In this document: positions 28,820-38,260 of the stretch, one piece after another
Layout of the letters: the number at the start of each line of letters is the position of its first letter
Position numbering within the stretch: the first letter of the stretch is position 1
From: Escherichia phage vB_EcoM_G17
DNA: 64,000 bases
Sequence record: MK327931.1
Direction: 5' to 3' (one strand)
Translations under genes and position numbers: made by a program
Notes under the pieces: model-generated
The model's input: the letters and a program-made list of their open reading frames with translations, nothing else
Databases searched by the model: none
What the model was told of the DNA's origin: nothing

Positions 28820-30784
28820 ATGAGTATAAATCGAATTAGAGGTGATGGTGGTGTAATTATTGATAGTAAATCTTTTTTAGAGTTACCGAAAGCACCATCA
28901 AAAGAAACCGCTGATGTAATAAGATCAGGGATGATTAGATACAATAAGGAATGGAAATCATTTGAAGGTGTTCTGGATTTTGAAGATGGTACTATGGCAT
29001 ATCGCCGCTTTGCAAACTTAGATGCAAATGGTAAACTTCTTACTTCCCAATTACCAGATTCAGTAACTAGTGGTTTACAGTTTGTTGGTACATACAATCC
29101 TATCCCAGATGATATTGATCCACCTTTAGCACAAACACCACTACCAGCACCAGCAGCATCACTAAATGGTGATTATTATGTTGTTCGTGGTATTATGGAT
29201 GCCGCACAAGCCCATTATGAAGCAAATAATCCACAAACAAGTCCTGTTACATTTACACCTACAAATCCAACTGGACAAGGTAATTGGATTGAAATTTTAT
29301 ATTATGTTGACTCTAATCCAAATATATCTGGTGCTAAACTAGTAACATACGCTTTCGCTAGAATTATTCCTGCATCTATTCCTAGTACTGGTCATGATGG
29401 TCTTAAAAATTTAGCAACAGATGCTGACTTAACCAAACCATTTGCTTCAGGTGTTCCAATGAACCAAACCGCACTATCAGATGGTGATTGGATTATTATA
29501 ACTGAAGATAAAAACATACGTCTACGCCAGTCAAGAACAAGCATTTCCGCTGCTTCAGTATTATATGACAATACTGTAATGATTGCAAATCATCGTCAAT
29601 TTAGGACAAACGCAGGGACCGTTCAAACATCCATAGATAACGTTGTGATTGAGTGTTTACGTAGAACTGGTGATTCCATGTATAATGATGGAACAAGCGG
29701 CTCAGGGCGTTTTGGTGTGGTCTATGGTAGTGCAGCAGCACCAGCATTGACATTTAATAACAATCCATTTGATCCAACCAATAACCCAGGTAATGATCCT
29801 GCAAAATGGTCAGACGCTAATACTGGTATGTTTCATCCAGCAGATGATGCAATTGGTTTCAGTACTGCTGGAACTGAACGTATTAGAATTAATAATTCAA
29901 CATTAACATTATACCAAACAACTTCAACCCCAGCATCAACCCCAGTACTAAGATTTGATAATGCAACCAATACTAATGTTGGACTAAGTGCTAGTAGTAA
30001 TATTATTTCATTTAGTTCAATGAATAAAGTACAAGTTGAATTTAAAAATGGTGAAAGTGCGTTTCATGGTAATATTGTGGTTGATGGTACAAGTACATTG
30101 ACTGGTGATACATCAGCTAGTAATATCACTGCTAGTGGTAATTTGAACATTCAAGGTAATACTACATTAGGCGATGCTGCATCTGATACAATTACAGTTA
30201 ATGGAGTTAGTACGTTTACAGCAAACACTAATTTCAATGGAACAACTAATAAATTTAAAAATATAAATCTATTAGCTAATGGTATAATTACATTAGAAAG
30301 TACTACTAATCAAAGTACAATCCAATTAGTTAGTTCTGATTTAAAACTATCAATGGGTAATTATGCTGATGTAAGTATCTATGATAATGGAACTATAAGA
30401 ACACGTTTTAATAGATATGGTATCCAATTACCAGTACTAGCTACTATTGATAACTCTGTTGGCGTTGATGGTATGATTGCATACTCCAATACCGAGCGTA
30501 CTTCAATGCAAAAAGTTCAAGGTCAATGGGTTCCAATTGGTTCAGGTTCAGTGAGAACCGATGCTTTTACAATTTCATCTTGGGTATTAAGTGGTAACTA
30601 CTACACCCTTACTGTAACAGCCTCAAACATCGTCACAGCAGAGATACAGGAACAGGTTAGTCCTGGTGTCTATACTCGTGTTGAGGTCGATAGCGTTACG
30701 TTTAACGGCACTAACGTAGTGTTTAGTATACCTTCAACTCCTGATGTACGTTTCGACGGAAGAACATTGGTAACAATTAGATAA
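28820..30784 (+). CDS. Tail fibre protein (654 aa)
   Basis: GAGGA SD; T/S/N-rich with short repeated strands (GDTSASNITASGNLNIQGNTTLGDAASDTITVNG) typical of fibre shafts; ends at a bidirectional terminator. Confidence 0.6.
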   Translation: MSINRIRGDGGVIIDSKSFLELPKAPSKETADVIRSGMIRYNKEWKSFEGVLDFEDGTMAYRRFANLDANGKLLTSQLPDSVTSGLQFVGTYNPIPDDIDPPLAQTPLPAPAASLNGDYYVVRGIMDAAQAHYEANNPQTSPVTFTPTNPTGQGNWIEILYYVDSNPNISGAKLVTYAFARIIPASIPSTGHDGLKNLATDADLTKPFASGVPMNQTALSDGDWIIITEDKNIRLRQSRTSISAASVLYDNTVMIANHRQFRTNAGTVQTSIDNVVIECLRRTGDSMYNDGTSGSGRFGVVYGSAAAPALTFNNNPFDPTNNPGNDPAKWSDANTGMFHPADDAIGFSTAGTERIRINNSTLTLYQTTSTPASTPVLRFDNATNTNVGLSASSNIISFSSMNKVQVEFKNGESAFHGNIVVDGTSTLTGDTSASNITASGNLNIQGNTTLGDAASDTITVNGVSTFTANTNFNGTTNKFKNINLLANGIITLESTTNQSTIQLVSSDLKLSMGNYADVSIYDNGTIRTRFNRYGIQLPVLATIDNSVGVDGMIAYSNTERTSMQKVQGQWVPIGSGSVRTDAFTISSWVLSGNYYTLTVTASNIVTAEIQEQVSPGVYTRVEVDSVTFNGTNVVFSIPSTPDVRFDGRTLVTIR

Positions 30785-30791
30785 TAAAAAA

Positions 30792-30820
30792 GGGAGAACT
30801 GATGTTCTCCCTTTTCGTTT
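30792..30820. terminator. Bidirectional intrinsic terminator
   Basis: GGGAGAAC-TGAT-GTTCTCCC hairpin flanked by A-run and T-run; between convergent fibre gene (+) and thyA (-). Confidence 0.65.
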
Positions 30821-31748
30821 ATACAGCCATAGGTGCTTTAATTGTTGGCATTGGGTTGTAATTCACTAATTTAAAAGAATCCATAGTGAAATCTTCAATA
30901 TTAGTAATTGTAGGATCAAGCCACAATTCAGGTAATTCACGAGGTTTTCGCTGTAGTTGTTCTTTTACTTGTTCAACGTGGTTTTTATAAATGTGACAAT
31001 CACCACCATTCCAAATAAATTCACCAACATCTAAACCAGTAATTTGTGCAATCATATGAGTTAGTAGTGAGTAACTACTGATATTAAATGGAACTCCTAA
31101 AAATAGATCAGCGGAGCGTTGATGCAGAATACAGCTTAGTTTTCCTTGCACTACACAAAATTGCACAAAGCTATGACAAGGTGGTAACGTCATATCATCA
31201 AGCTCACCAACGTTCCATGCACTTAGAATGTGGCGACGGCCATATGGATCGGACTTTATACCTTTGATTAGTTCTTGTAATTGGTCAGTTGTACGTTTCA
31301 TAACAACACCATGTGAACCAGTATAATCGATAACTTTGTATCCTTTATCTTTTAATTCTTGAATTTCTTCAGTACTGGAACTAAATTTATAATCTTCCCA
31401 TTCACGCCATTGCTTACCATACACTGGACCTAACTCACCATCAGTATAACCAAGAGCAACGCCTTGATTTAGGTAATTATCTGTCCAAATAGTTTTCTTT
31501 TCTGTATCACGAGTTCCATGCAAAATTTCACAAAGGCGACGCTCATCATGGGAACCTTCAATAAACCATAGTAATTCTGAAGTCATTGCTTTCCAAGCTA
31601 GACGTTTTGTCGTCACTGCTGGGAAACCATCTTTAAGGTCAAAACGCATTTGTTGACCGATAAGTTTGATTGTTCCAACACCAGTACGGTCAACGCTTTC
31701 TACGCCTTCATCTAGAATTTTTTGATATAGTTCTTGTAGTTGTTTCAT
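30819..31748 (-). CDS. thyA: Thymidylate synthase family (ThyA, or a dUMP/dCMP hydroxymethylase homologue)
   Basis: Hallmarks R-TGVGT, DLKDGFP, LPPCH..VQF and GVPFN-SYSLLT; contiguous, no intron; start overlaps the stop of the upstream gene (TAATG). Confidence 0.85.
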   Translation of the reverse strand: MKQLQELYQKILDEGVESVDRTGVGTIKLIGQQMRFDLKDGFPAVTTKRLAWKAMTSELLWFIEGSHDERRLCEILHGTRDTEKKTIWTDNYLNQGVALGYTDGELGPVYGKQWREWEDYKFSSSTEEIQELKDKGYKVIDYTGSHGVVMKRTTDQLQELIKGIKSDPYGRRHILSAWNVGELDDMTLPPCHSFVQFCVVQGKLSCILHQRSADLFLGVPFNISSYSLLTHMIAQITGLDVGEFIWNGGDCHIYKNHVEQVKEQLQRKPRELPELWLDPTITNIEDFTMDSFKLVNYNPMPTIKAPMAV

Positions 31749-32341
31749 TATTCTTCCTTGAAAAATGTAATAAAATGTTCCATATGTTTTTCGGTGGCAT
31801 TGCGTGAACCAATACCAGTCCAGTTACCATGTGGTGCTGGAACGACGAATGTTTGTGTGAACTCTTTCAGTACTGTATCGAAATAAAATACTGAACGTGA
31901 ATTCATATCATAACAATAAATTTCAGGATTTTCAACTGAATCCATATACATCTGTACTGCCCATGCAGTACCACCACTTACCTTAGTTGGTGATGTGATA
32001 TTTGCAATACAATATATTCTTTCTGTATTAAGTATCTGATAACTATTCCTTGCAAGTAAGTTGTAAACATAAGAACCAGGTTTTGGTACTTTTCGCTGCA
32101 ACGAGTAACATGCAATGTTTAGTTGATTTAATATAGAAATATCAGATAGAATATTGGATGGTATTTCTAATATAGTACTTTCATCTACACTATGCTCATG
32201 ACCTTTGAATGAAAAATTAATAACTTCAAATCCATTATTTTTTGCATAGATAGAAAAAAGGCGGTCAGCACCTGCTGCCCCGCCACTAAAACATACATTA
32301 GATAAACCTTTAATTGCTTCATCTAATTCATTCTTTTTCAT
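31748..32341 (-). CDS. SLOG-fold (DprA/LOG-like) protein, translationally coupled to thyA
   Basis: N-terminal SGGAAGAD motif (DprA/YpsA-like G-x-G-x-D) and later SGGTAW (LOG-like PGGxGT); assignment by motif only. Confidence 0.4.
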   Translation of the reverse strand: MKKNELDEAIKGLSNVCFSGGAAGADRLFSIYAKNNGFEVINFSFKGHEHSVDESTILEIPSNILSDISILNQLNIACYSLQRKVPKPGSYVYNLLARNSYQILNTERIYCIANITSPTKVSGGTAWAVQMYMDSVENPEIYCYDMNSRSVFYFDTVLKEFTQTFVVPAPHGNWTGIGSRNATEKHMEHFITFFKEE

Positions 32342-32344
32342 ATT

Positions 32345-33001
32345 TTATTTTGCTTTACGTTCTGCAAATAGTTGTTTTACTTTCTCAATAGCTTTAGTCT
32401 GTGAAATACCTTCTGGAATTTCTAGATAAATTGTTTTACTATCTTTCGGTTGTTCAACAACTTGTGTTTGCGGACGCAAGCTTGGCTCTAAATTGTATGC
32501 ACGTTCATAATGTTCTTTAGCCAGTTTTTCATATTTTTGTGCATCAGTGAGAAGTTGTTCTACAATAGTAGCTTCTTCTACTTTAGTGTCCGCTTCTTGT
32601 GGATTGAATGGGTTAAAGTCTTTTACTTTACCATCTTCTTGTACTTTCGCTTGATTTTCATCTAATGCTTTGTTTAGAACATCAAGAGAAATTTTATTAT
32701 TACCACCAGTGTGCATATCAATGTCACAAGTACGAACGCGACGTAGATGCTGCATGTTGTGTAGAACATCTAGCATTTTGCGTCCATCGAGATAACCAAT
32801 TTTATGCATTACTTCCCACAAATCAATATTAGATTGACCATGACCCATAACAATATCAGTTACTGCGTGAACATATGCTTCTGGTAGTGAATCACGATAA
32901 ACGATAAGGCAGTGTTCAGGATCATCTGGTAGTGAACGCCAAACAACAAAAACACGAGAACCTGTATTACGCATTACACCAACATGACGAATAGCTGCCA
33001 T
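32345..33001 (-). CDS. Hypothetical protein (218 aa)
   Basis: ORF 3 nt upstream of the SLOG gene in the same operon; no motif recognised. Confidence 0.6.
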   Translation of the reverse strand: MAAIRHVGVMRNTGSRVFVVWRSLPDDPEHCLIVYRDSLPEAYVHAVTDIVMGHGQSNIDLWEVMHKIGYLDGRKMLDVLHNMQHLRRVRTCDIDMHTGGNNKISLDVLNKALDENQAKVQEDGKVKDFNPFNPQEADTKVEEATIVEQLLTDAQKYEKLAKEHYERAYNLEPSLRPQTQVVEQPKDSKTIYLEIPEGISQTKAIEKVKQLFAERKAK

Positions 33002-33003
33002 AA

Positions 33004-33264
33004 TTATTCTCCTTTATCTTCTTGAGTTTCACTATCTTGTGATTCAGCTTCTTCTTTAGCTGCATCTTCTTGTGCTTTAATATCTTCAAGAGCTACATTT
33101 GCAAAAGAAACAAATTTAGATACAACTGGAGCAACCTCAACAAGTTCTTCAACTTTAAAGGTGTTTCGTGCAACAGCAGCTTCCATGATTTTTGCAGCAT
33201 TGATTAGGTCTAGAAGGGTTAGTTGAATTTGATTATTTTCTTGTTCCATTTTAATACTCTCCAT
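33004..33264 (-). CDS. Small acidic hypothetical protein (86 aa)
   Basis: ORF; possible TATAAT at about 33284-33289 on the minus strand upstream. Confidence 0.5.
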   Translation of the reverse strand: MESIKMEQENNQIQLTLLDLINAAKIMEAAVARNTFKVEELVEVAPVVSKFVSFANVALEDIKAQEDAAKEEAESQDSETQEDKGE

Positions 33265-33322
33265 GTATATTGGTACATTAACTATTATATCATATTTTTA
33301 TAAGTTGTCCCACTTATAAAAG

Positions 33323-33357
33323 AAGAGAACGGAAAATTCCGTTCTCTTTATTTAGTA
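33323..33357 (-). terminator. Intrinsic terminator or attenuator after the VWA gene
   Basis: GAGAACGG-AAAATT-CCGTTCTC hairpin with T-rich flank on both strands. Confidence 0.5.
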
Positions 33358-33358
33358 C

Positions 33359-34783
33359 TTAACTACGTTGACGCTTTTTATCAGCTTCATATTCGTAGTG
33401 TACAGTCTCACCAAATGGTGCAACTTTATTTGGGTTACTGTGAATCACGAACAGTGTTTTACAGTAGTTTGGATCACCCCATGACTGCCACGGTTCACCA
33501 TCAGTAAACATTACAAGCTGTTTAGGCTTGTAGTTGTCGTTCTTCATATGAACCCATACTGCTTCAAAGTCAGTACCACCACCACCTTTTACTGGATATT
33601 CCAGAATCTTACGTTCTTCGCCAGTTTTGTAATCCTTTACAGTATAAACTTCAGTATCAAAAGTCATGATACGAATCTTAAACTGTTTGAATTGTTTAGT
33701 GATGCCAAGAACTTCACTAATGAAATCACGAAGCATATCTTCAGAAATAGACCCAGAAGCATCTAGTGCAATCGCAATATCAATATCATCATCTGGTTTC
33801 ATCCCTGGGTAAATTGGATTACCATAGAATGAACCATTAGAACCAAAACCAGCACCCCATGAACGACGAGAAGGACTTTGATACGTTGCATCAGACTTCA
33901 ACCAACTACGAAGTGTACGTTGAAGTTTTGAACGCCAGTCAATCTTTGGTTCTTTAAAGTTGTTAATCATACGAGCGATTTCTGCTGGTGTACCACCTGC
34001 ACGTGCAGCATTCATCATTGCTGTTTTGAAATCATCCATATAATCACGTTTTTGCTGTTCACTTGAACCACCTTCTTGACCTTCTTGTGGAACGTCATGC
34101 TGGTCAATGGTAGTACCTTTTGGTTTACCCTTACCATCTTTAATATCGCCAAAAGTACCGCGATTTTTACCTTCACCTTCACCGCCACCACTTTGTGGTT
34201 GACCTTCACCTTCACCATCTTCTTTTTGTTCTTCTTCTTCAAGAAGAATGTAAATCTCTTCTGCGGTCATACCTTCATATTTTTTATCATACAACCATGA
34301 ACTTTGGATTTTTCCAATTTTCTCACGAACGATGATTTGGTTAATGGCATAATCCGCTGCACGGTTATAACGTTGTGGATCACGCATACCACGACGAAGG
34401 AAGTGATCGTAAGCACAGTGTAGAATTTCATGACAAATTACAGCAATAAGGTTTTCATCAGTCAAACCTTCAGTCATTTCTTTTAATTGTTCGTCTGTAA
34501 CTTCAGGATGCTTTTCACGAATAGCTTCTTCATATTCTTTCTTTTTAGATGGGTCTTGAATACCCATTACAAATTCTACGTTGTAGAATAGATGTTTACC
34601 ATCAACTGCTAGAGTACGACACCATGTATTATTAGGAACTGGACGTAAACGTGAAGCGAGTACACCAAAGAATGGTGCAGTTAACATCAAAGATGTACGA
34701 GCCAGAACCAGACGATCTTGACATTCTTTCTGGAGTGCCGGAGATACTTCATTGAATCTGGAAGTAGATTTGTTATCTGACAT
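33359..34783 (-). CDS. VWA-domain protein with N-terminal HExxH metallopeptidase-like domain (partner of MoxR-like ATPase)
   Basis: HEILH (HExxH) near residue 119; VWA MIDAS motif DIAIALDASGSIS (DxSxS); Gly/Glu-rich linker between the domains. Confidence 0.7.
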   Translation of the reverse strand: MSDNKSTSRFNEVSPALQKECQDRLVLARTSLMLTAPFFGVLASRLRPVPNNTWCRTLAVDGKHLFYNVEFVMGIQDPSKKKEYEEAIREKHPEVTDEQLKEMTEGLTDENLIAVICHEILHCAYDHFLRRGMRDPQRYNRAADYAINQIIVREKIGKIQSSWLYDKKYEGMTAEEIYILLEEEEQKEDGEGEGQPQSGGGEGEGKNRGTFGDIKDGKGKPKGTTIDQHDVPQEGQEGGSSEQQKRDYMDDFKTAMMNAARAGGTPAEIARMINNFKEPKIDWRSKLQRTLRSWLKSDATYQSPSRRSWGAGFGSNGSFYGNPIYPGMKPDDDIDIAIALDASGSISEDMLRDFISEVLGITKQFKQFKIRIMTFDTEVYTVKDYKTGEERKILEYPVKGGGGTDFEAVWVHMKNDNYKPKQLVMFTDGEPWQSWGDPNYCKTLFVIHSNPNKVAPFGETVHYEYEADKKRQRS

Positions 34784-34799
34784 GTATATTTCCTCGTTT

Positions 34800-34837
34800 A
34801 GTTAAGATAAAAGAAGGATACCATTAGGCATCCTTCT
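34800..34837 (-). terminator. Possible weak terminator or RNA hairpin between the MoxR and VWA genes
   Basis: AGAAGGAT...ATCCTTCT 8-bp stem with 10-nt loop and short U-run on the minus strand. Confidence 0.35.
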
Positions 34838-34857
34838 TGTCAACAACTCTTTGTTAA

Positions 34858-36183
34858 TTAGCCAAGAGAGCGTGCTTTACGTACAAGTTCAGAGTACTTA
34901 GCGATGAAATCTTTAAACGCTGGTACATCTTTAATGGAAATCGCAACCTTATGAAGCGTGATGGTACGAATTGCCAGTACTGCCAGTTCTGCTTGAGTTG
35001 CAGAGAAGTTATGGTCTAGGAAGGTGATGAAGTTGTTACACAGTTTACCCCATTCTTCCACTGGTAGACGTTGTTCTTGCTTCTCATTGAACAGGTCGAT
35101 AATTTTATAAACCAAGTTCAGAGTGATAAAGTAGTTCGCAGAAATATCCAGCGTTGCGTCGATTTCTTTGATTTCACCAGACAGAATAGACATAGTATCT
35201 GGTAGTTTAGCAACGTTCTCAACGTACTCAATGTATTCAGTTGCAACACCTTCACCAACACGACCAGCAATCATTGCACGGAACACTTCTTTATCAATTG
35301 TCTTAGTTTTCTTGAGATCTTCGTAGCGTGCTACTGCTTCCCATGAACGTGGAGAAGTACCACCACTGTGAGAAGGATCTTGTGGACTAAGTGTGTTAAA
35401 GTACTTAGAACCAGTGTTGTTGATGAACGCAACAGTTGCTGGGTTCAAACGTTTTGCAATCGCATAATCGTTAATCCAATCTTGATGATAAGGAATCATC
35501 TCAATGTGAGTCATACGGTCACGCAGTGGTGTAGCAAGAGAGAAAGTTACACCGCCATCAGTTTCACGGTTACCTGCTGCAAGAATCAGTGCAGTCTTAG
35601 GTAGCTTCATCTCACCAACACAACGGTCGAGGATTAGCTGATAAGACGCTGCCTGAACAATAGGCATTGCAGAGTTAATTTCGTCAAACAGAATAACACC
35701 TTTCCAATCTTCGGACAATTTCAGAACTTTAGGTGCAGCCCATACTACCGCAGTTTCAGCTACATAATCTTTTGCTTCGGCAAGCTCAGATTCTTTCAGA
35801 AGAGAACCGTCAGTTTTACGGAAAAGCTTCTCTGGTACTGGAATACCGCGAAGGTCACTTGGTTCGATTTGAGACAAACGGAAATCGATAAAGTTAGTAT
35901 CTTGGTCGATTAGTTTTGCTTCAAATGCAGCCAGTTCACGGCGTAGCTGATCAGCATTTTCAGGGTCAGCTTCGATTTGTTGTTTCATGAACTCGATTTT
36001 AGCTACGTTATCTTTACGCAGTGGGTAATTTTCATCAGCGTATTGACGAGCGATTGCAGACTTACCGATACCTGGGCTACCCCAAATCATCAGGCTATCT
36101 TGAATCATGTCAGCTAGTGCCATTGCTTCTTTAGCTTTCTTTGGAGTCAGTTTAACGTTCAGGATATCGTTTTGAGTAGTCAT
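34858..36183 (-). CDS. MoxR-like AAA+ ATPase
   Basis: Walker A GSPGIGKS, Walker B ILFDEINS; 441 aa; immediately upstream of the VWA gene, as in MoxR/VWA or CobS/CobT-like phage pairs. Confidence 0.75.
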   Translation of the reverse strand: MTTQNDILNVKLTPKKAKEAMALADMIQDSLMIWGSPGIGKSAIARQYADENYPLRKDNVAKIEFMKQQIEADPENADQLRRELAAFEAKLIDQDTNFIDFRLSQIEPSDLRGIPVPEKLFRKTDGSLLKESELAEAKDYVAETAVVWAAPKVLKLSEDWKGVILFDEINSAMPIVQAASYQLILDRCVGEMKLPKTALILAAGNRETDGGVTFSLATPLRDRMTHIEMIPYHQDWINDYAIAKRLNPATVAFINNTGSKYFNTLSPQDPSHSGGTSPRSWEAVARYEDLKKTKTIDKEVFRAMIAGRVGEGVATEYIEYVENVAKLPDTMSILSGEIKEIDATLDISANYFITLNLVYKIIDLFNEKQEQRLPVEEWGKLCNNFITFLDHNFSATQAELAVLAIRTITLHKVAISIKDVPAFKDFIAKYSELVRKARSLG

Positions 36184-36352
36184 GTATATATTTCCTTTTG
36201 TTGGATAAAATCGTTTAAGTTTCTATTATAGCCAATCCGTGGGCAAAAGTAAAGGAACTGTGTTAAAATAATTTAACTTATCAGTTCCTTTGTTACTTCA
36301 TGAATCATCCGTGTGTTTAAAAGGTAAATCTCTTTGCTGTCTTGATGTGAAC

Positions 36353-36380
36353 ATTATATCACATCGTTTCAACTTGTCAA
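36353..36380 (-). promoter_or_regulatory. Consensus sigma70-type promoter (TTGACA-N16-TATAAT), proximal copy
   Basis: Minus strand reads TTGACA-agttgaaacgatgtga-TATAAT, with TG at -14/-15 (extended -10). Confidence 0.6.
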
Positions 36381-36446
36381 TCACTTTTTTTCTTTTTTTT
36401 TCAAACTCACATCTTGTGTCGCTTGAAAACTTTATGTCTGATGCTT

Positions 36447-36474
36447 ATTGTATCACATCATTCTATCTTGTCAA
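36447..36474 (-). promoter_or_regulatory. Consensus sigma70-type promoter (TTGACA-N16-TACAAT), distal copy
   Basis: Minus strand reads TTGACA-agatagaatgatgtga-TACAAT; spacer closely resembles that of the proximal copy (aga...gaa...gatgtga). Confidence 0.55.
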
Positions 36475-36498
36475 CATTTATTTTTAATTCATTTTTTC

Positions 36499-36879
36499 TT
36501 ACATATGAATAGAAAATAACTGTTTAAAATCGTCACAACACAATGTTAATTCAGTTATTATCATTGCATCTGTCAGATATATGTACTGACCTTCAACATA
36601 ATAAGGTGAAGTACATATTCTGTCAAGTGATGTAAACATTATAGAACTTTTAAATTCTCTTTGCAAGGGGATTTTTGTAAATTCATAAAGATTATTTTCT
36701 TTACAAATTCCATACCCAAACTTGCTAAGACGTAAACCACCGCCAGTTCTGAAATTTTCAAAAATTGACATCAGAAGCATACGGTCTGTTATTTCTGAAT
36801 CTGATTCATGTACTTCCCTAACTTTGGAAAGTACATTATTTTGATATTCAGTACTGTTATGTGATGGTTCTGGAAACAT
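36499..36879 (-). CDS. Hypothetical protein (126 aa)
   Basis: ORF at the end of the minus-strand virion block. Confidence 0.5.
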   Translation of the reverse strand: MFPEPSHNSTEYQNNVLSKVREVHESDSEITDRMLLMSIFENFRTGGGLRLSKFGYGICKENNLYEFTKIPLQREFKSSIMFTSLDRICTSPYYVEGQYIYLTDAMIITELTLCCDDFKQLFSIHM

Positions 36880-36882
36880 ATA

Positions 36883-37278
36883 TTAGTCTCCAACAAAACC
36901 TTGACGTGCAGCATATGATGGTGCACCAGGCTCATTATAGTGTTGTACGCCTTCTTTGTCAATTGTTGGTCCCATACCTTCAGTTCCAAAACAACCTGCA
37001 ATGGCTTCCAACACTTCTTCATCAGCAACTTCAGTACTTTCATCATTATATCGAATGTCAGACAAAATGTCACAGGCTTTTTGTAGTTTATCTACAATTT
37101 CTTTTTGGTCTTCACCAGATTTAATCTTATCAACAATATCAATAAGACATTTGGTAATATCCTTAAGAACATCAACTGCTACAACATCGGATTCAACTTC
37201 AACTGAAAAACTTTCGTCTTCATCTCTTCCGGTAATTTCGTCTAACGCTTCAACTAGTTCACGATAATTATATTGCAT
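36883..37278 (-). CDS. Acidic hypothetical protein (131 aa)
   Basis: ORF; strongly D/E-rich. Confidence 0.55.
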   Translation of the reverse strand: MQYNYRELVEALDEITGRDEDESFSVEVESDVVAVDVLKDITKCLIDIVDKIKSGEDQKEIVDKLQKACDILSDIRYNDESTEVADEEVLEAIAGCFGTEGMGPTIDKEGVQHYNEPGAPSYAARQGFVGD

Positions 37279-37279
37279 A

Positions 37280-38260
37280 TTATTTGTCTCCTAAAAATTT
37301 CTTGTATTTTTCTTGGAGACTTTCAAAAATATCTTCTACTTCTTCATCAGAATCATCTTCCAAGTCAATGTTACCTTCAGGTGAATCATCTTCTTCACTT
37401 TCATTAACATTTAGTGGGTTATCTCCTAATGCAGTGCCTGGGAATTTTGGTTCAAATTTATGAACACGATTTTCGTTCCCTTCATTATCATAATACTCAG
37501 GTTCTGGACGATTGTCAAGATCTTCATCTACAACACGTCTCCAATAAAATTGATTGCCTTTTGCAATTACAACAAAATGGTCACCTTCAACACCATTAGT
37601 CTTTAGTTGACCATCACGAACGGCATCAGCTTCTGTATCATATGGACCATAATCAGTACTGTTAGATGGTTCTTCATCTTCAGAGATACTTAGATCTGGT
37701 AGAAATTGGGTATCTTTCATTTCTTTATCGGTAGCAGGATTACCCTCTACTGAAAAATCTTCGTCTTCTTCTTCGTTAATACCAGCAAGAGATAGCATAC
37801 GACTAAAATCGAATTCTTCTTCAATAATTTCTTCTTCTTCCTCATCGTCTTCTTCAACTGATTCTAGTTGAGGTTGACCACTAAGGTCAAGAGAAAAATC
37901 TTCTTCACCTTCTACACCTGGTTCTGAAAATTCAGCATCCATACTAACTTCATCTGTGTCAGCACCAAAATCACCAACATCAGCGGAAAGATCATCAACT
38001 GCCGCTGCTAGTGGGTCTTCAACTGAAGTTTCAATTCCACCAATTTCTTCTTCAGCACCAATAGAATCGAGATCTAGTGGAGCAATAGGTGGAAGAGATG
38101 GAGTCATAGACCCCATAGATGGTACTGGAGCGGCAACTACTGGGTCTTGACGTTCAGCTTGACCAGCAAGAGCTAACATACGTGATAGAGTTTCCAAATC
38201 ATCAGATTCTAAACCTGCGATATCGATTTTAACTTGTGCTTCATTAATTTTTTTAGCCAT
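37280..38260 (-). CDS. Highly acidic protein (326 aa), poly-D/E segments
   Basis: ORF with long acidic tracts (VEEDDEEEEEIIEEEFDF, DLEDDSDEEVED). Confidence 0.6.
   Translation of the reverse strand: MAKKINEAQVKIDIAGLESDDLETLSRMLALAGQAERQDPVVAAPVPSMGSMTPSLPPIAPLDLDSIGAEEEIGGIETSVEDPLAAAVDDLSADVGDFGADTDEVSMDAEFSEPGVEGEEDFSLDLSGQPQLESVEEDDEEEEEIIEEEFDFSRMLSLAGINEEEDEDFSVEGNPATDKEMKDTQFLPDLSISEDEEPSNSTDYGPYDTEADAVRDGQLKTNGVEGDHFVVIAKGNQFYWRRVVDEDLDNRPEPEYYDNEGNENRVHKFEPKFPGTALGDNPLNVNESEEDDSPEGNIDLEDDSDEEVEDIFESLQEKYKKFLGDK

Follow-up and report, generated by a model that had tools for sequence, protein, structure and literature searches.

The stretch of 64,000 nucleotides of Escherichia phage vB_EcoM_G17 (sequence record MK327931.1) analysed here, referred to below as the window, carries on its minus strand two adjacent genes that encode a predicted MoxR-class AAA+ ATPase and a partner protein combining a predicted N-terminal zincin domain, a long linker and a C-terminal VWA domain. 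In the first-pass annotation of this DNA, the genes had been described as a MoxR ATPase and a VWA protein with a metal-ion-dependent adhesion site (MIDAS) and an N-terminal HExxH module. Both open reading frames (ORFs) lie exactly where they had been placed (36183..34858 and 34783..33359), and the proposed domain composition is borne out by sequence motifs and by Pfam. The pair and its parts are the following:

34858..36183, minus strand: MoxR-class AAA+ ATPase (predicted), 441 amino acids (aa), 49.5 kDa; homologue of N4 gp24, 121Q gp563 and phAPEC6 gp265c
33359..34783, minus strand: zincin-VWA protein, 474 aa; Pfam DUF2201_N and DUF2201
34214..34783, minus strand: predicted N-terminal zincin domain of the latter (residues 1-190), with HEILHCAYDH at 34403..34432 and invariant D144/N148; supported by Pfam and profile matches
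33794..34213, minus strand: linker (residues 191-330), an acidic, Gly-rich stretch of low model confidence with an invariant D227-x-H229, followed by three helices
33359..33793, minus strand: C-terminal minimal VWA domain with a complete MIDAS (D341, S343, S345, T404, D428), and the stop codon

By translation, the ATPase contains a Walker A motif (GSPGIGKS, 36058..36081; G35-S42), a Walker B motif (ILFDE; D167, E168), a sensor-1 AGNRE and the motifs PLRDRM and SPRS. Residues K41, S42, E168, N205, R223 of PLRDRM and P278-R279 of SPRS are invariant in 119 homologues; N205 in sensor 1, R223 in ‘L-x-D-R-h’ and P278-R279 in the ‘SPR’ sensor 2 correspond to what we take to be the signature motifs of MoxR proteins. 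Membership in the AAA_5/MoxR family, suggested in the first-pass annotation, is not recovered directly for the window protein, which gives a borderline match to AAA (21.3 bits versus a cut-off of 21.2), stays below the cut-off for AAA_3 (16.7 bits versus 27) and is not listed for AAA_5; it does emerge from relatives at 31-37% identity, 16 of 25 of which match AAA_5 (best E value 3.2e-11), 15 AAA_3 and 10 bpMoxR. The direct match to AAA_3 or AAA_5 is apparently lost because insertions break it. One of these, a two-helix insertion at approximately residues 57-90, is seen in the alignment and in the model only in the jumbo-phage proteins and their closest environmental relatives; the jumbo-phage ATPases also have a longer helix-2-insert hairpin than other relatives. 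In the AlphaFold model (predicted local distance difference test, pLDDT, 86.2; predicted template modelling score, pTM, 0.78), this hairpin follows helix 108-112 and consists of strands 114-123 and 140-149, and a pre-sensor-1 hairpin of short strands at ~187-194 precedes strand 199-205. The fold search with the ATPase yielded Hsp101 (13.1), CbbQ (13.0), dynein (12.9), NorQ (12.8), ClpB (12.3), midasin (12.1) and MoxR 2r44 (11.5), a set that is enriched for the helix-2-insert clade without discriminating this clade from Hsp101/ClpB. Because the motifs, the predicted inserts, the transitive homology and the pairing with a VWA protein all point in the same direction, the 441-aa protein is classified here as a predicted divergent MoxR-class AAA+ ATPase of the helix-2-insert clade. 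Its family is represented in 815 of 50,697 phage records.

The partner matches DUF2201_N (E 2.7e-34, 119.5 bits, cut-off 23.2) and, C-terminal to it, DUF2201 (E 7e-21, 75.1 bits, cut-off 26.4), in agreement with the DUF2201-like peptidase-VWA architecture anticipated for it; both domains are present in all 119 full-length matches, the 120th listed match being a 331-aa fragment. The MIDAS elements read DASGS, GGGGT and FTDG in translation. In 120 homologues, H118, E119, H122, D144, N148, D227, H229 and the five MIDAS residues are invariant; in 33 far more diverse N-domains from N4-like, rV5-like, PA5oct-like and bacterial proteins, H118, E119, H122, H127, R130, D144 and N148 remain so. The structural model (pLDDT 75.9) places strands 47-50, 58-60 and 64-67 ahead of the HExxH helix 109-127, after which come a linker with pLDDT below 50 at residues 191-221, three helices and a compact VWA domain; within the linker, confidence rises locally at ~221-230, around D227-x-H229. 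PDB sequence searches with single sequences and with whole-protein profiles returned only P-loop or weak integrin matches. A profile built from the N-domain alone retrieved the solved structures of the M48 peptidase 3c37 (E 2e-4) and the minigluzincin MJ1213 (4qhf; E 2.2e-4) and, more weakly, BepA (E 0.08) and HtpX (E 0.14), with an alignment that spans the strands preceding the active-site helix and the HExxH helix itself and is of marginal but consistent significance. Among the 33 diverse N-domains, sub-threshold Pfam matches to M48 (25 of 33) and SprT-like (12 of 33) were also found. The N-domain is thus predicted to be an M48-like zincin, consistent with the metal-binding peptidase fold suspected from the HExxH motif. 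H127 and D144 are the candidate third zinc ligands; since the motif is HExxHxxxxH with invariant D144/N148, the third ligand is unlikely to be the distal glutamate that characterises gluzincins. The phage protein also differs from M48 peptidases and minigluzincins (3c37, the projannalysin MJ1213, BepA, HtpX) in being soluble and fused to a VWA domain, and its peptidase role is a prediction; its zincin domain carries an insertion of ~35 residues compared with other relatives. The partner family comprises 14,674 cluster representatives at E <= 1e-3 (7,975 at E <= 1e-10) and occurs in 617 of the 50,697 phage records. The peptidase-VWA fusion, regarded in the first-pass annotation as a special twist, is the normal architecture of this family of ~14,700 representatives, and is that of N4 gp25.

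The distribution of the pair was assessed at 44 loci obtained by scanning one genome per species. Co-conservation, which had been expected for related phages, proved very strong: a homologue of the ATPase gene lies upstream of the VWA gene on the same strand in 40 of the 44 loci, and the contigs of the other four end before that position. The genes lie side by side in Asteriusvirus, Alcyoneusvirus, Eneladusvirus and Atu_ph07, including K64-1 and fHe-Yen9-04, and are separated by a homing endonuclease gene and/or one to three small genes in G7C, Littlefix and the PA5oct-like PAC2. In Vequintavirus, the ‘anti-sigma factor’ encoded upstream was considered as the ATPase partner and rejected; the true homologue is a MoxR ATPase encoded 3.6 kb away on the other strand. 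The pair is spread over N4-like, rV5-like and Rak2-like jumbo phages and marine myophages, and a bacterial, Rhizobiales-type branch also exists, in which a DUF3150-like gene accompanies the pair in 13 loci (L020, L021, L024-L030, L034, L040, L047 and L048 in our numbering, largely Rhizobiales and metagenome-assembled genomes) and stands between the two genes in three of them. The two genes have thus been inherited together in phages that are very distant from one another and in bacterial mobile elements. The DUF3150-accompanied module may be a prophage or plasmid replication module; in Pseudochrobactrum, genes for a DNA ligase and the DnaN sliding clamp are found close to the pair.

Over positions 33000-36500, the window matches Escherichia phage Sharanji at 100% identity, 121Q and phAPEC6 at 99.9%, and other Asteriusvirus genomes at 79-87%, so that the pair resides in a giant coliphage of the 121Q/Sharanji type. 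In 121Q, the ATPase is gp563 (‘ATPase’) and the zincin-VWA protein is gp564, which RefSeq mislabels ‘HNH endonuclease’ with the note ‘Zn-dependent hydrolase (T4-gp25-like)’; in phAPEC6, the genes are annotated as ‘MoxR ATPase’ (gp265c) and ‘N4 gp25-like protein’. The corresponding PHROGs are phrog_1297 and phrog_1314, the ‘HNH endonuclease’ label of the latter being an annotation artefact. A nuclease identity was rejected because Pfam shows no HNH domain in the zincin-VWA protein, and a baseplate identity because Pfam shows no gp25 domain, ‘gp25-like’ referring to gp25 of N4. HNH homing endonuclease genes are repeatedly located beside or between the two genes, as in G7C (L002), PAC2 (L004), Atu_ph07 (L058) and JSF3 (L062), and such inserted genes are probably the source of the wrong label on phrog_1314 and on many RefSeq zincin-VWA records. 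Other GenBank labels on homologues are ‘N4 gp25-like’, ‘gp24-like’, ‘MoxR ATPase’, ‘putative metallopeptidase’ and ‘Sll7028/Sll7029’, and gp24/gp25-type annotation is present in G7C, Littlefix, K64-1 and Muenster.

The pair thus consists of homologues of phage N4 gp24 (the ATPase) and gp25 (the VWA protein), which were named AAA and vWFA proteins in N4-like roseophages already in 2009. A MoxR-vWA pair with an N-terminal metallopeptidase has been reported for group 2.2 jumbo phages, with a proposed role in virion assembly accompanied by proteolytic processing (Iyer, Anantharaman, Krishnan, Burroughs and Aravind 2021, Viruses 13:63). Families, gene order and domain architecture are the same in all these cases, and nothing essential differs. 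With a sequence identical to that of published phages and an architecture that has been described before, the window itself offers nothing new. No functional study of the pair was found in the literature on DUF2201, DUF3150, N4 gp24/gp25 and the Schitoviridae core genes, and the papers on the PA5oct transcriptome, Sharanji and CBB contain no gene-level data on it. What the present analysis adds is the constant position of the ATPase gene ahead of the VWA gene in the 40 loci with upstream DNA, a co-conserved third partner, a recurrent thymidylate-synthase and replication context, and a conserved layout of two transcription units with hairpins.

Downstream of the pair, in the order of transcription, the window encodes:

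33004..33264, minus strand: small acidic protein, 86 aa, isoelectric point 4.2, phrog_13789; weakly conserved beside the third partner
32345..33001, minus strand: third partner, 218 aa, 25.0 kDa, phrog_15894
31748..32341, minus strand: SLOG/DprA-like protein, phrog_768, with a weak Pfam YAcAr match
30819..31748, minus strand: thymidylate synthase ThyA; together with the SLOG/DprA-like gene it completes the second transcription unit

The search for a conserved third partner, recommended in the first-pass annotation, was fruitful. All-against-all clustering of neighbouring ORFs located a gene for the 218-aa protein 3' of the VWA gene, after one or two small ORFs, in 8 other loci. The protein is found in 85 phage records, every one listed belonging to a genome larger than 286 kb, and has at least 2373 environmental homologues of ~200-220 aa. 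Marine contigs recovered from two of these homologues encode, in order, the ATPase, the DUF2201 protein, two small ORFs and a protein of the 218-aa type. We conclude that the 218-aa protein is a co-conserved third partner of the pair in jumbo and marine myophages. Pfam identified no domain in this protein or its homologues, and the PDB profile search gave nothing credible (best match eL28, E 0.12). The last coding base of the SLOG/DprA-like gene is the first of the thyA start codon (an overlapping ATGA), and the SLOG/DprA-like stretch within 30819..32341 is annotated in phAPEC6 as two short fragments.

A thymidylate synthase is encoded a few kb downstream of the pair in many relatives, namely ThyA in fHe-Yen9-04 and locus L016 and ThyX in G7C, roseophages and loci L010 and L013; in Atu_ph07, ThyX is separated from the pair by ~9 kb and follows the third-partner gene (gp250) after ~1 kb. 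Other neighbours include dCTP/dCMP deaminase, DNA helicase and DNA polymerase in JSF3 and Littlefix; glutaredoxin, polymerase, an NrdA-like protein and ligase in Atu_ph07; thymidylate kinase and MazG in PVP-SE1; a DNA polymerase I-like protein in SCTP-2; a 5'-3' exonuclease in marine contigs; and NrdD in Fervidicola. This recurrent association with replication and nucleotide-metabolism genes argues against a dedicated morphogenetic role.

The regulatory elements predicted around these genes are the following:

36474..36447, minus strand: promoter P1, TTGACA-16-TACAAT with TG (extended -10), 11/12 consensus positions; kept in Asteriusvirus and Klebsiella phage Muenster
36380..36353, minus strand: promoter P2, TTGACA-16-TATAAT with TG, 12/12; kept in Asteriusvirus, absent in Muenster
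36225..36253, minus strand: weaker promoter-like site P3, TTTACT-17-TATAAT, overlapping the tail of the leader hairpin
36246..36299, minus strand: leader stem-loop AAAGGAACUG...CAGUUCCUUU, followed by ACUUUUG, between P2 and the ATPase start
34811..34838, minus strand: intercistronic stem-loop of 12 bp, followed by UUAUCUU, between the ATPase and VWA genes
33323..33348, minus strand: intrinsic-terminator-like hairpin of 11 bp, followed by CUUUUAU, 3' of the VWA gene
33284..33311, minus strand: promoter-like site with an extended -10 (TGaTATAAT), ahead of the downstream unit
30787..30816, minus strand: strong terminator-like hairpin of 13 bp with a T-run, 3' of thyA, at the end of the second unit

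The tandem strong promoters noticed in the first-pass annotation are real, although they fall outside the range 33359-36183 given there. Strict TTGACA-N15-18-TAYAAT sites number four in the 64 kb, with 0.59 expected, and P1 and P2 are two of these. A 126-nt stretch of the leader folds at -25.5 kcal/mol (z = -3.55), and its stem-loop is conserved, with a compensatory 1-bp shortening in Muenster and a hairpin of different sequence at the equivalent place in fHe-Yen9-04; it may serve as an attenuator or a stabiliser, or may form the 3' terminus of a short early transcript. The same stem-loop overlaps the -35 element of P3. An 87-nt stretch containing the intercistronic hairpin folds at z = -4.47, and a 101-nt stretch with the hairpin 3' of the VWA gene at z = -4.39. 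An Rfam scan of 30.5-37.5 kb gave no matches above noise for the leader and intergenic hairpins.

In K64-1 and fHe-Yen9-04, a stem-loop between the two genes and a hairpin with a promoter-like site 3' of the VWA gene occupy the same positions with different sequences, and in fHe-Yen9-04 a hairpin also follows thyA at the corresponding position. Because the VWA gene is followed by a terminator-like hairpin and an extended -10 promoter, and because this plan is kept in K64-1 and fHe-Yen9-04, the layout is predicted to consist of two transcription units, one for the ATPase and the VWA protein and one for the 218-aa protein and ThyA. The earlier suggestion of a single operon running into thyA is accordingly upheld as to the position of thyA, which does lie downstream, but not as to co-transcription. 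The intercistronic hairpin could keep expression of the partner below that of the ATPase, in keeping with a possible 6:1 complex. No late-type ATAAATA motif is present on the minus strand between 30 and 40.4 kb. From the strong sigma70-type promoters upstream, the lack of a late motif nearby and the replication-type neighbours, we infer early-to-middle timing of expression.

The closest mechanistic precedents are the NorQ-NorD and CbbQ-CbbO systems. In the former, the VWA domain of one NorD molecule is gripped by a hexamer of the MoxR protein, and ATP-driven rotation stretches the linker to the N-domain, thereby remodelling the client (cryo-electron microscopy, PMC13036017). The phage pair resembles both systems in that the partner is composed of an N-domain, a long linker and a VWA/MIDAS domain and the ATPase is assigned to the helix-2-insert clade, and the logic of a ring seated on a VWA domain and remodelling its linker is likely to be shared. 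It differs from NorQ-NorD in that the phage N-domain is a predicted zincin with the catalytic Glu of HExxH intact, the VWA domain is reduced to a minimum (~135 residues) and lacks an evident finger for insertion into the pore, and there is no fixed metal-enzyme target. By analogy with these two systems, the pair may be an ATP-gated protease or remodeller that is targeted by an adaptor through the MIDAS and acts in the early-to-middle phase of replication and nucleotide metabolism rather than in morphogenesis, a reading that we prefer and to which we assign not quite an even chance. The ATPase ring would dock onto the VWA domain of one partner molecule, and ATP hydrolysis would twist or stretch the partner's linker so as to position or unmask the N-terminal zincin; a client gripped via an acidic residue at the MIDAS site would then be cut, or at least remodelled, by the zincin. 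The best candidates for the client would be the co-encoded small acidic protein, the 218-aa protein, or a protein of replication or nucleotide metabolism. Since D227-x-H229 is invariant and has raised local confidence within an otherwise disordered linker, this segment might, speculatively, act as a latency element lodged in the active-site cleft of the zincin. A more specific and distinctly doubtful version of this proposal holds that the pair is the core of an early/middle module of at least four genes (the ATPase, the zincin-VWA protein, one or more small acidic proteins and a ~210-aa protein) that is not an assembly chaperone and travels with interchangeable ThyA/ThyX and replication genes across myo- and podophages, and that it would operate as an ATP-gated latent protease, with the ring stretching the linker to free D-x-H from the cleft, to process a protein of replication or deoxynucleoside triphosphate synthesis.

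Several observations weigh against this interpretation of the pair as an early ATP-gated protease. Peptidase activity, hexamer formation and contact between the ATPase and the VWA domain are all matters that we infer; both fold searches with the partner were filled with VWA matches only; and the modelled VWA domain is minimal, with no obvious counterpart of the 45-residue ‘finger’ of NorD, so that the mode of docking may differ from that of NorD. The Vequintavirinae encode the pair on opposite strands, with 3.6-4.3 kb between the genes. Shared timing alone may account for the synteny with replication genes, and in Asteriusvirus the unit with the pair is located directly downstream of virion structural genes (tail-tube, head-completion and others) on the same strand. 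Finally, the mass spectrometry list for purified phAPEC6 virions contains the ATPase gp265c (49.52 kDa), 19% of which is covered by 6 peptides.

The last two observations, together with the single peptide of the 218-aa protein (gp262c) in the same list and a tail-fibre-like Mtd_N gene that follows the module in marine contigs, favour the hypothesis published for exactly this pair by Iyer et al. (2021, Viruses 13:63), namely that it is a virion-assembly chaperone and maturation protease which folds or assembles structural proteins and trims them. The proposal has an analogue in p618 (MoxR) and p892 (VWA) of the Acidianus two-tailed virus, another virus-encoded pair, which acts in tail development; it belongs to an archaeal virus, has no peptidase domain and has a documented part in the extracellular growth of the tail. 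Yet the list also includes ThyA with 3 peptides (the masses of these proteins match) and lacks the zincin-VWA protein, so abundant non-structural proteins may co-purify, and the ATPase, ThyA and the 218-aa protein could be either packaged or carried over as contaminants. Moreover, these phages already encode a prohead protease, the promoters near the pair are of the early sigma70 type with the late motif not found nearby, and the N4-like pair belongs to a left-arm block with RNAP2, deaminase, ThyX, helicase and polymerase genes, the sole annotated virion gene in the N4-like stretches fetched being that of G7C gp17 (a 32-kDa N4-type virion/head-decoration protein); Atu_ph07, PVP-SE1 and SCTP-2 likewise present a replication and nucleotide-metabolism context. 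In several phage lineages the neighbours are thus genes of this kind and not of morphogenesis; taken together, the third partner, this context and the two-unit layout modestly shift the balance away from an assembly role, which we regard as rather unlikely.

The pair might instead insert a metal cofactor into, or otherwise activate, an enzyme of nucleotide metabolism or replication, as NorQD, CbbQO, CoxDE and CobST do for their targets; the HExxH domain would then bind metal or offer a docking site instead of acting as a protease. Remodelling of a target and insertion of metal are what MoxR-VWA pairs characteristically bring about (PMC13036017), the succession of N-domain, long linker and VWA parallels NorD, and the recurrent neighbours include metal- or cofactor-dependent enzymes (deaminases, ThyX/ThyA, NrdD, glutaredoxin). 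We consider this quite unlikely, given that no one partner enzyme is common to all lineages, ThyA, ThyX, deaminase and NrdD alternating, and that the catalytic Glu of HExxH is invariant in every homologue examined, which argues for hydrolysis over mere metal binding. Least probable, in our judgement very much so, is a host-takeover or counter-defence protease that destroys a host defence, nucleoid or transcription factor early in infection. Early-type promoters and the wide spread of the pair in virulent phages of many hosts would suit such a role, as would the use of vWA-MoxR modules in bacterial conflict systems; these ternary systems have a MoxR-vWA core and occasionally a metallopeptidase effector (Kaur, Burroughs, Iyer and Aravind 2020, eLife 9:e52696), and some relatives of the phage ATPase weakly match Pfam bpMoxR. 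However, the phage locus has no recognised VMAP/beta-propeller component or effector diversity, its third partner being an unrelated 218-aa protein, and the co-conserved neighbours have no Pfam match; scans of six genes of the locus gave no match with PADLOC and no relevant match with NCBIfam, and the link to conflict systems raised in the first-pass annotation therefore finds no support. The family is equally conserved in phages of Roseobacter, Vibrio, Pseudomonas and Planktothrix hosts and in Saccharibacteria-associated contigs, its slow, motif-preserving evolution is unlike that of arms-race genes, and its co-conserved partners are phage-encoded.

With its catalytic motifs intact, the pair is among the more widespread uncharacterised two-gene modules of virulent phages. 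If its client were identified, a core gene pair of the Schitoviridae and group 2.2 jumbo phages would gain a function, and a MoxR-VWA machine that controls a protease would be on record for the first time.

Some observations concern the late-type and sigma70-type promoter motifs elsewhere in the window. Neither strand of the 64 kb contains the T4 late-promoter octamer TATAAATA, with 9.5 +/- 3.3 occurrences expected, and there are just 9 copies of ATAAATA, each with A or G before it, compared with ~45 expected from a rough base-composition estimate. Examples are the following:

28780, plus strand: ATAAATA site
40406, minus strand: ATAAATA site
40931, minus strand: ATAAATA site
43800, minus strand: ATAAATA site
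44642, minus strand: ATAAATA site

Two ATAAATA sites are located 40-50 nt upstream of the structural-gene starts at 28820 and 40356. This pattern is consistent with selection against a late-promoter motif at other positions, as has been suggested for phages CBB and GAP32. Further sigma70-type sites, one matching 12/12 and three 11/12 consensus positions, lie inside coding sequence:

36934..36962, minus strand: sigma70 site in coding sequence
37490..37518, minus strand: sigma70 site in coding sequence
37045..37073, minus strand: sigma70 site in coding sequence
36598..36626, minus strand: sigma70 site in coding sequence

Three of these are in annotated virion structural genes and one is in a 126-aa ORF (36499..36879); their position upstream of or within this ORF suggests an early/middle island that starts inside the late genes.

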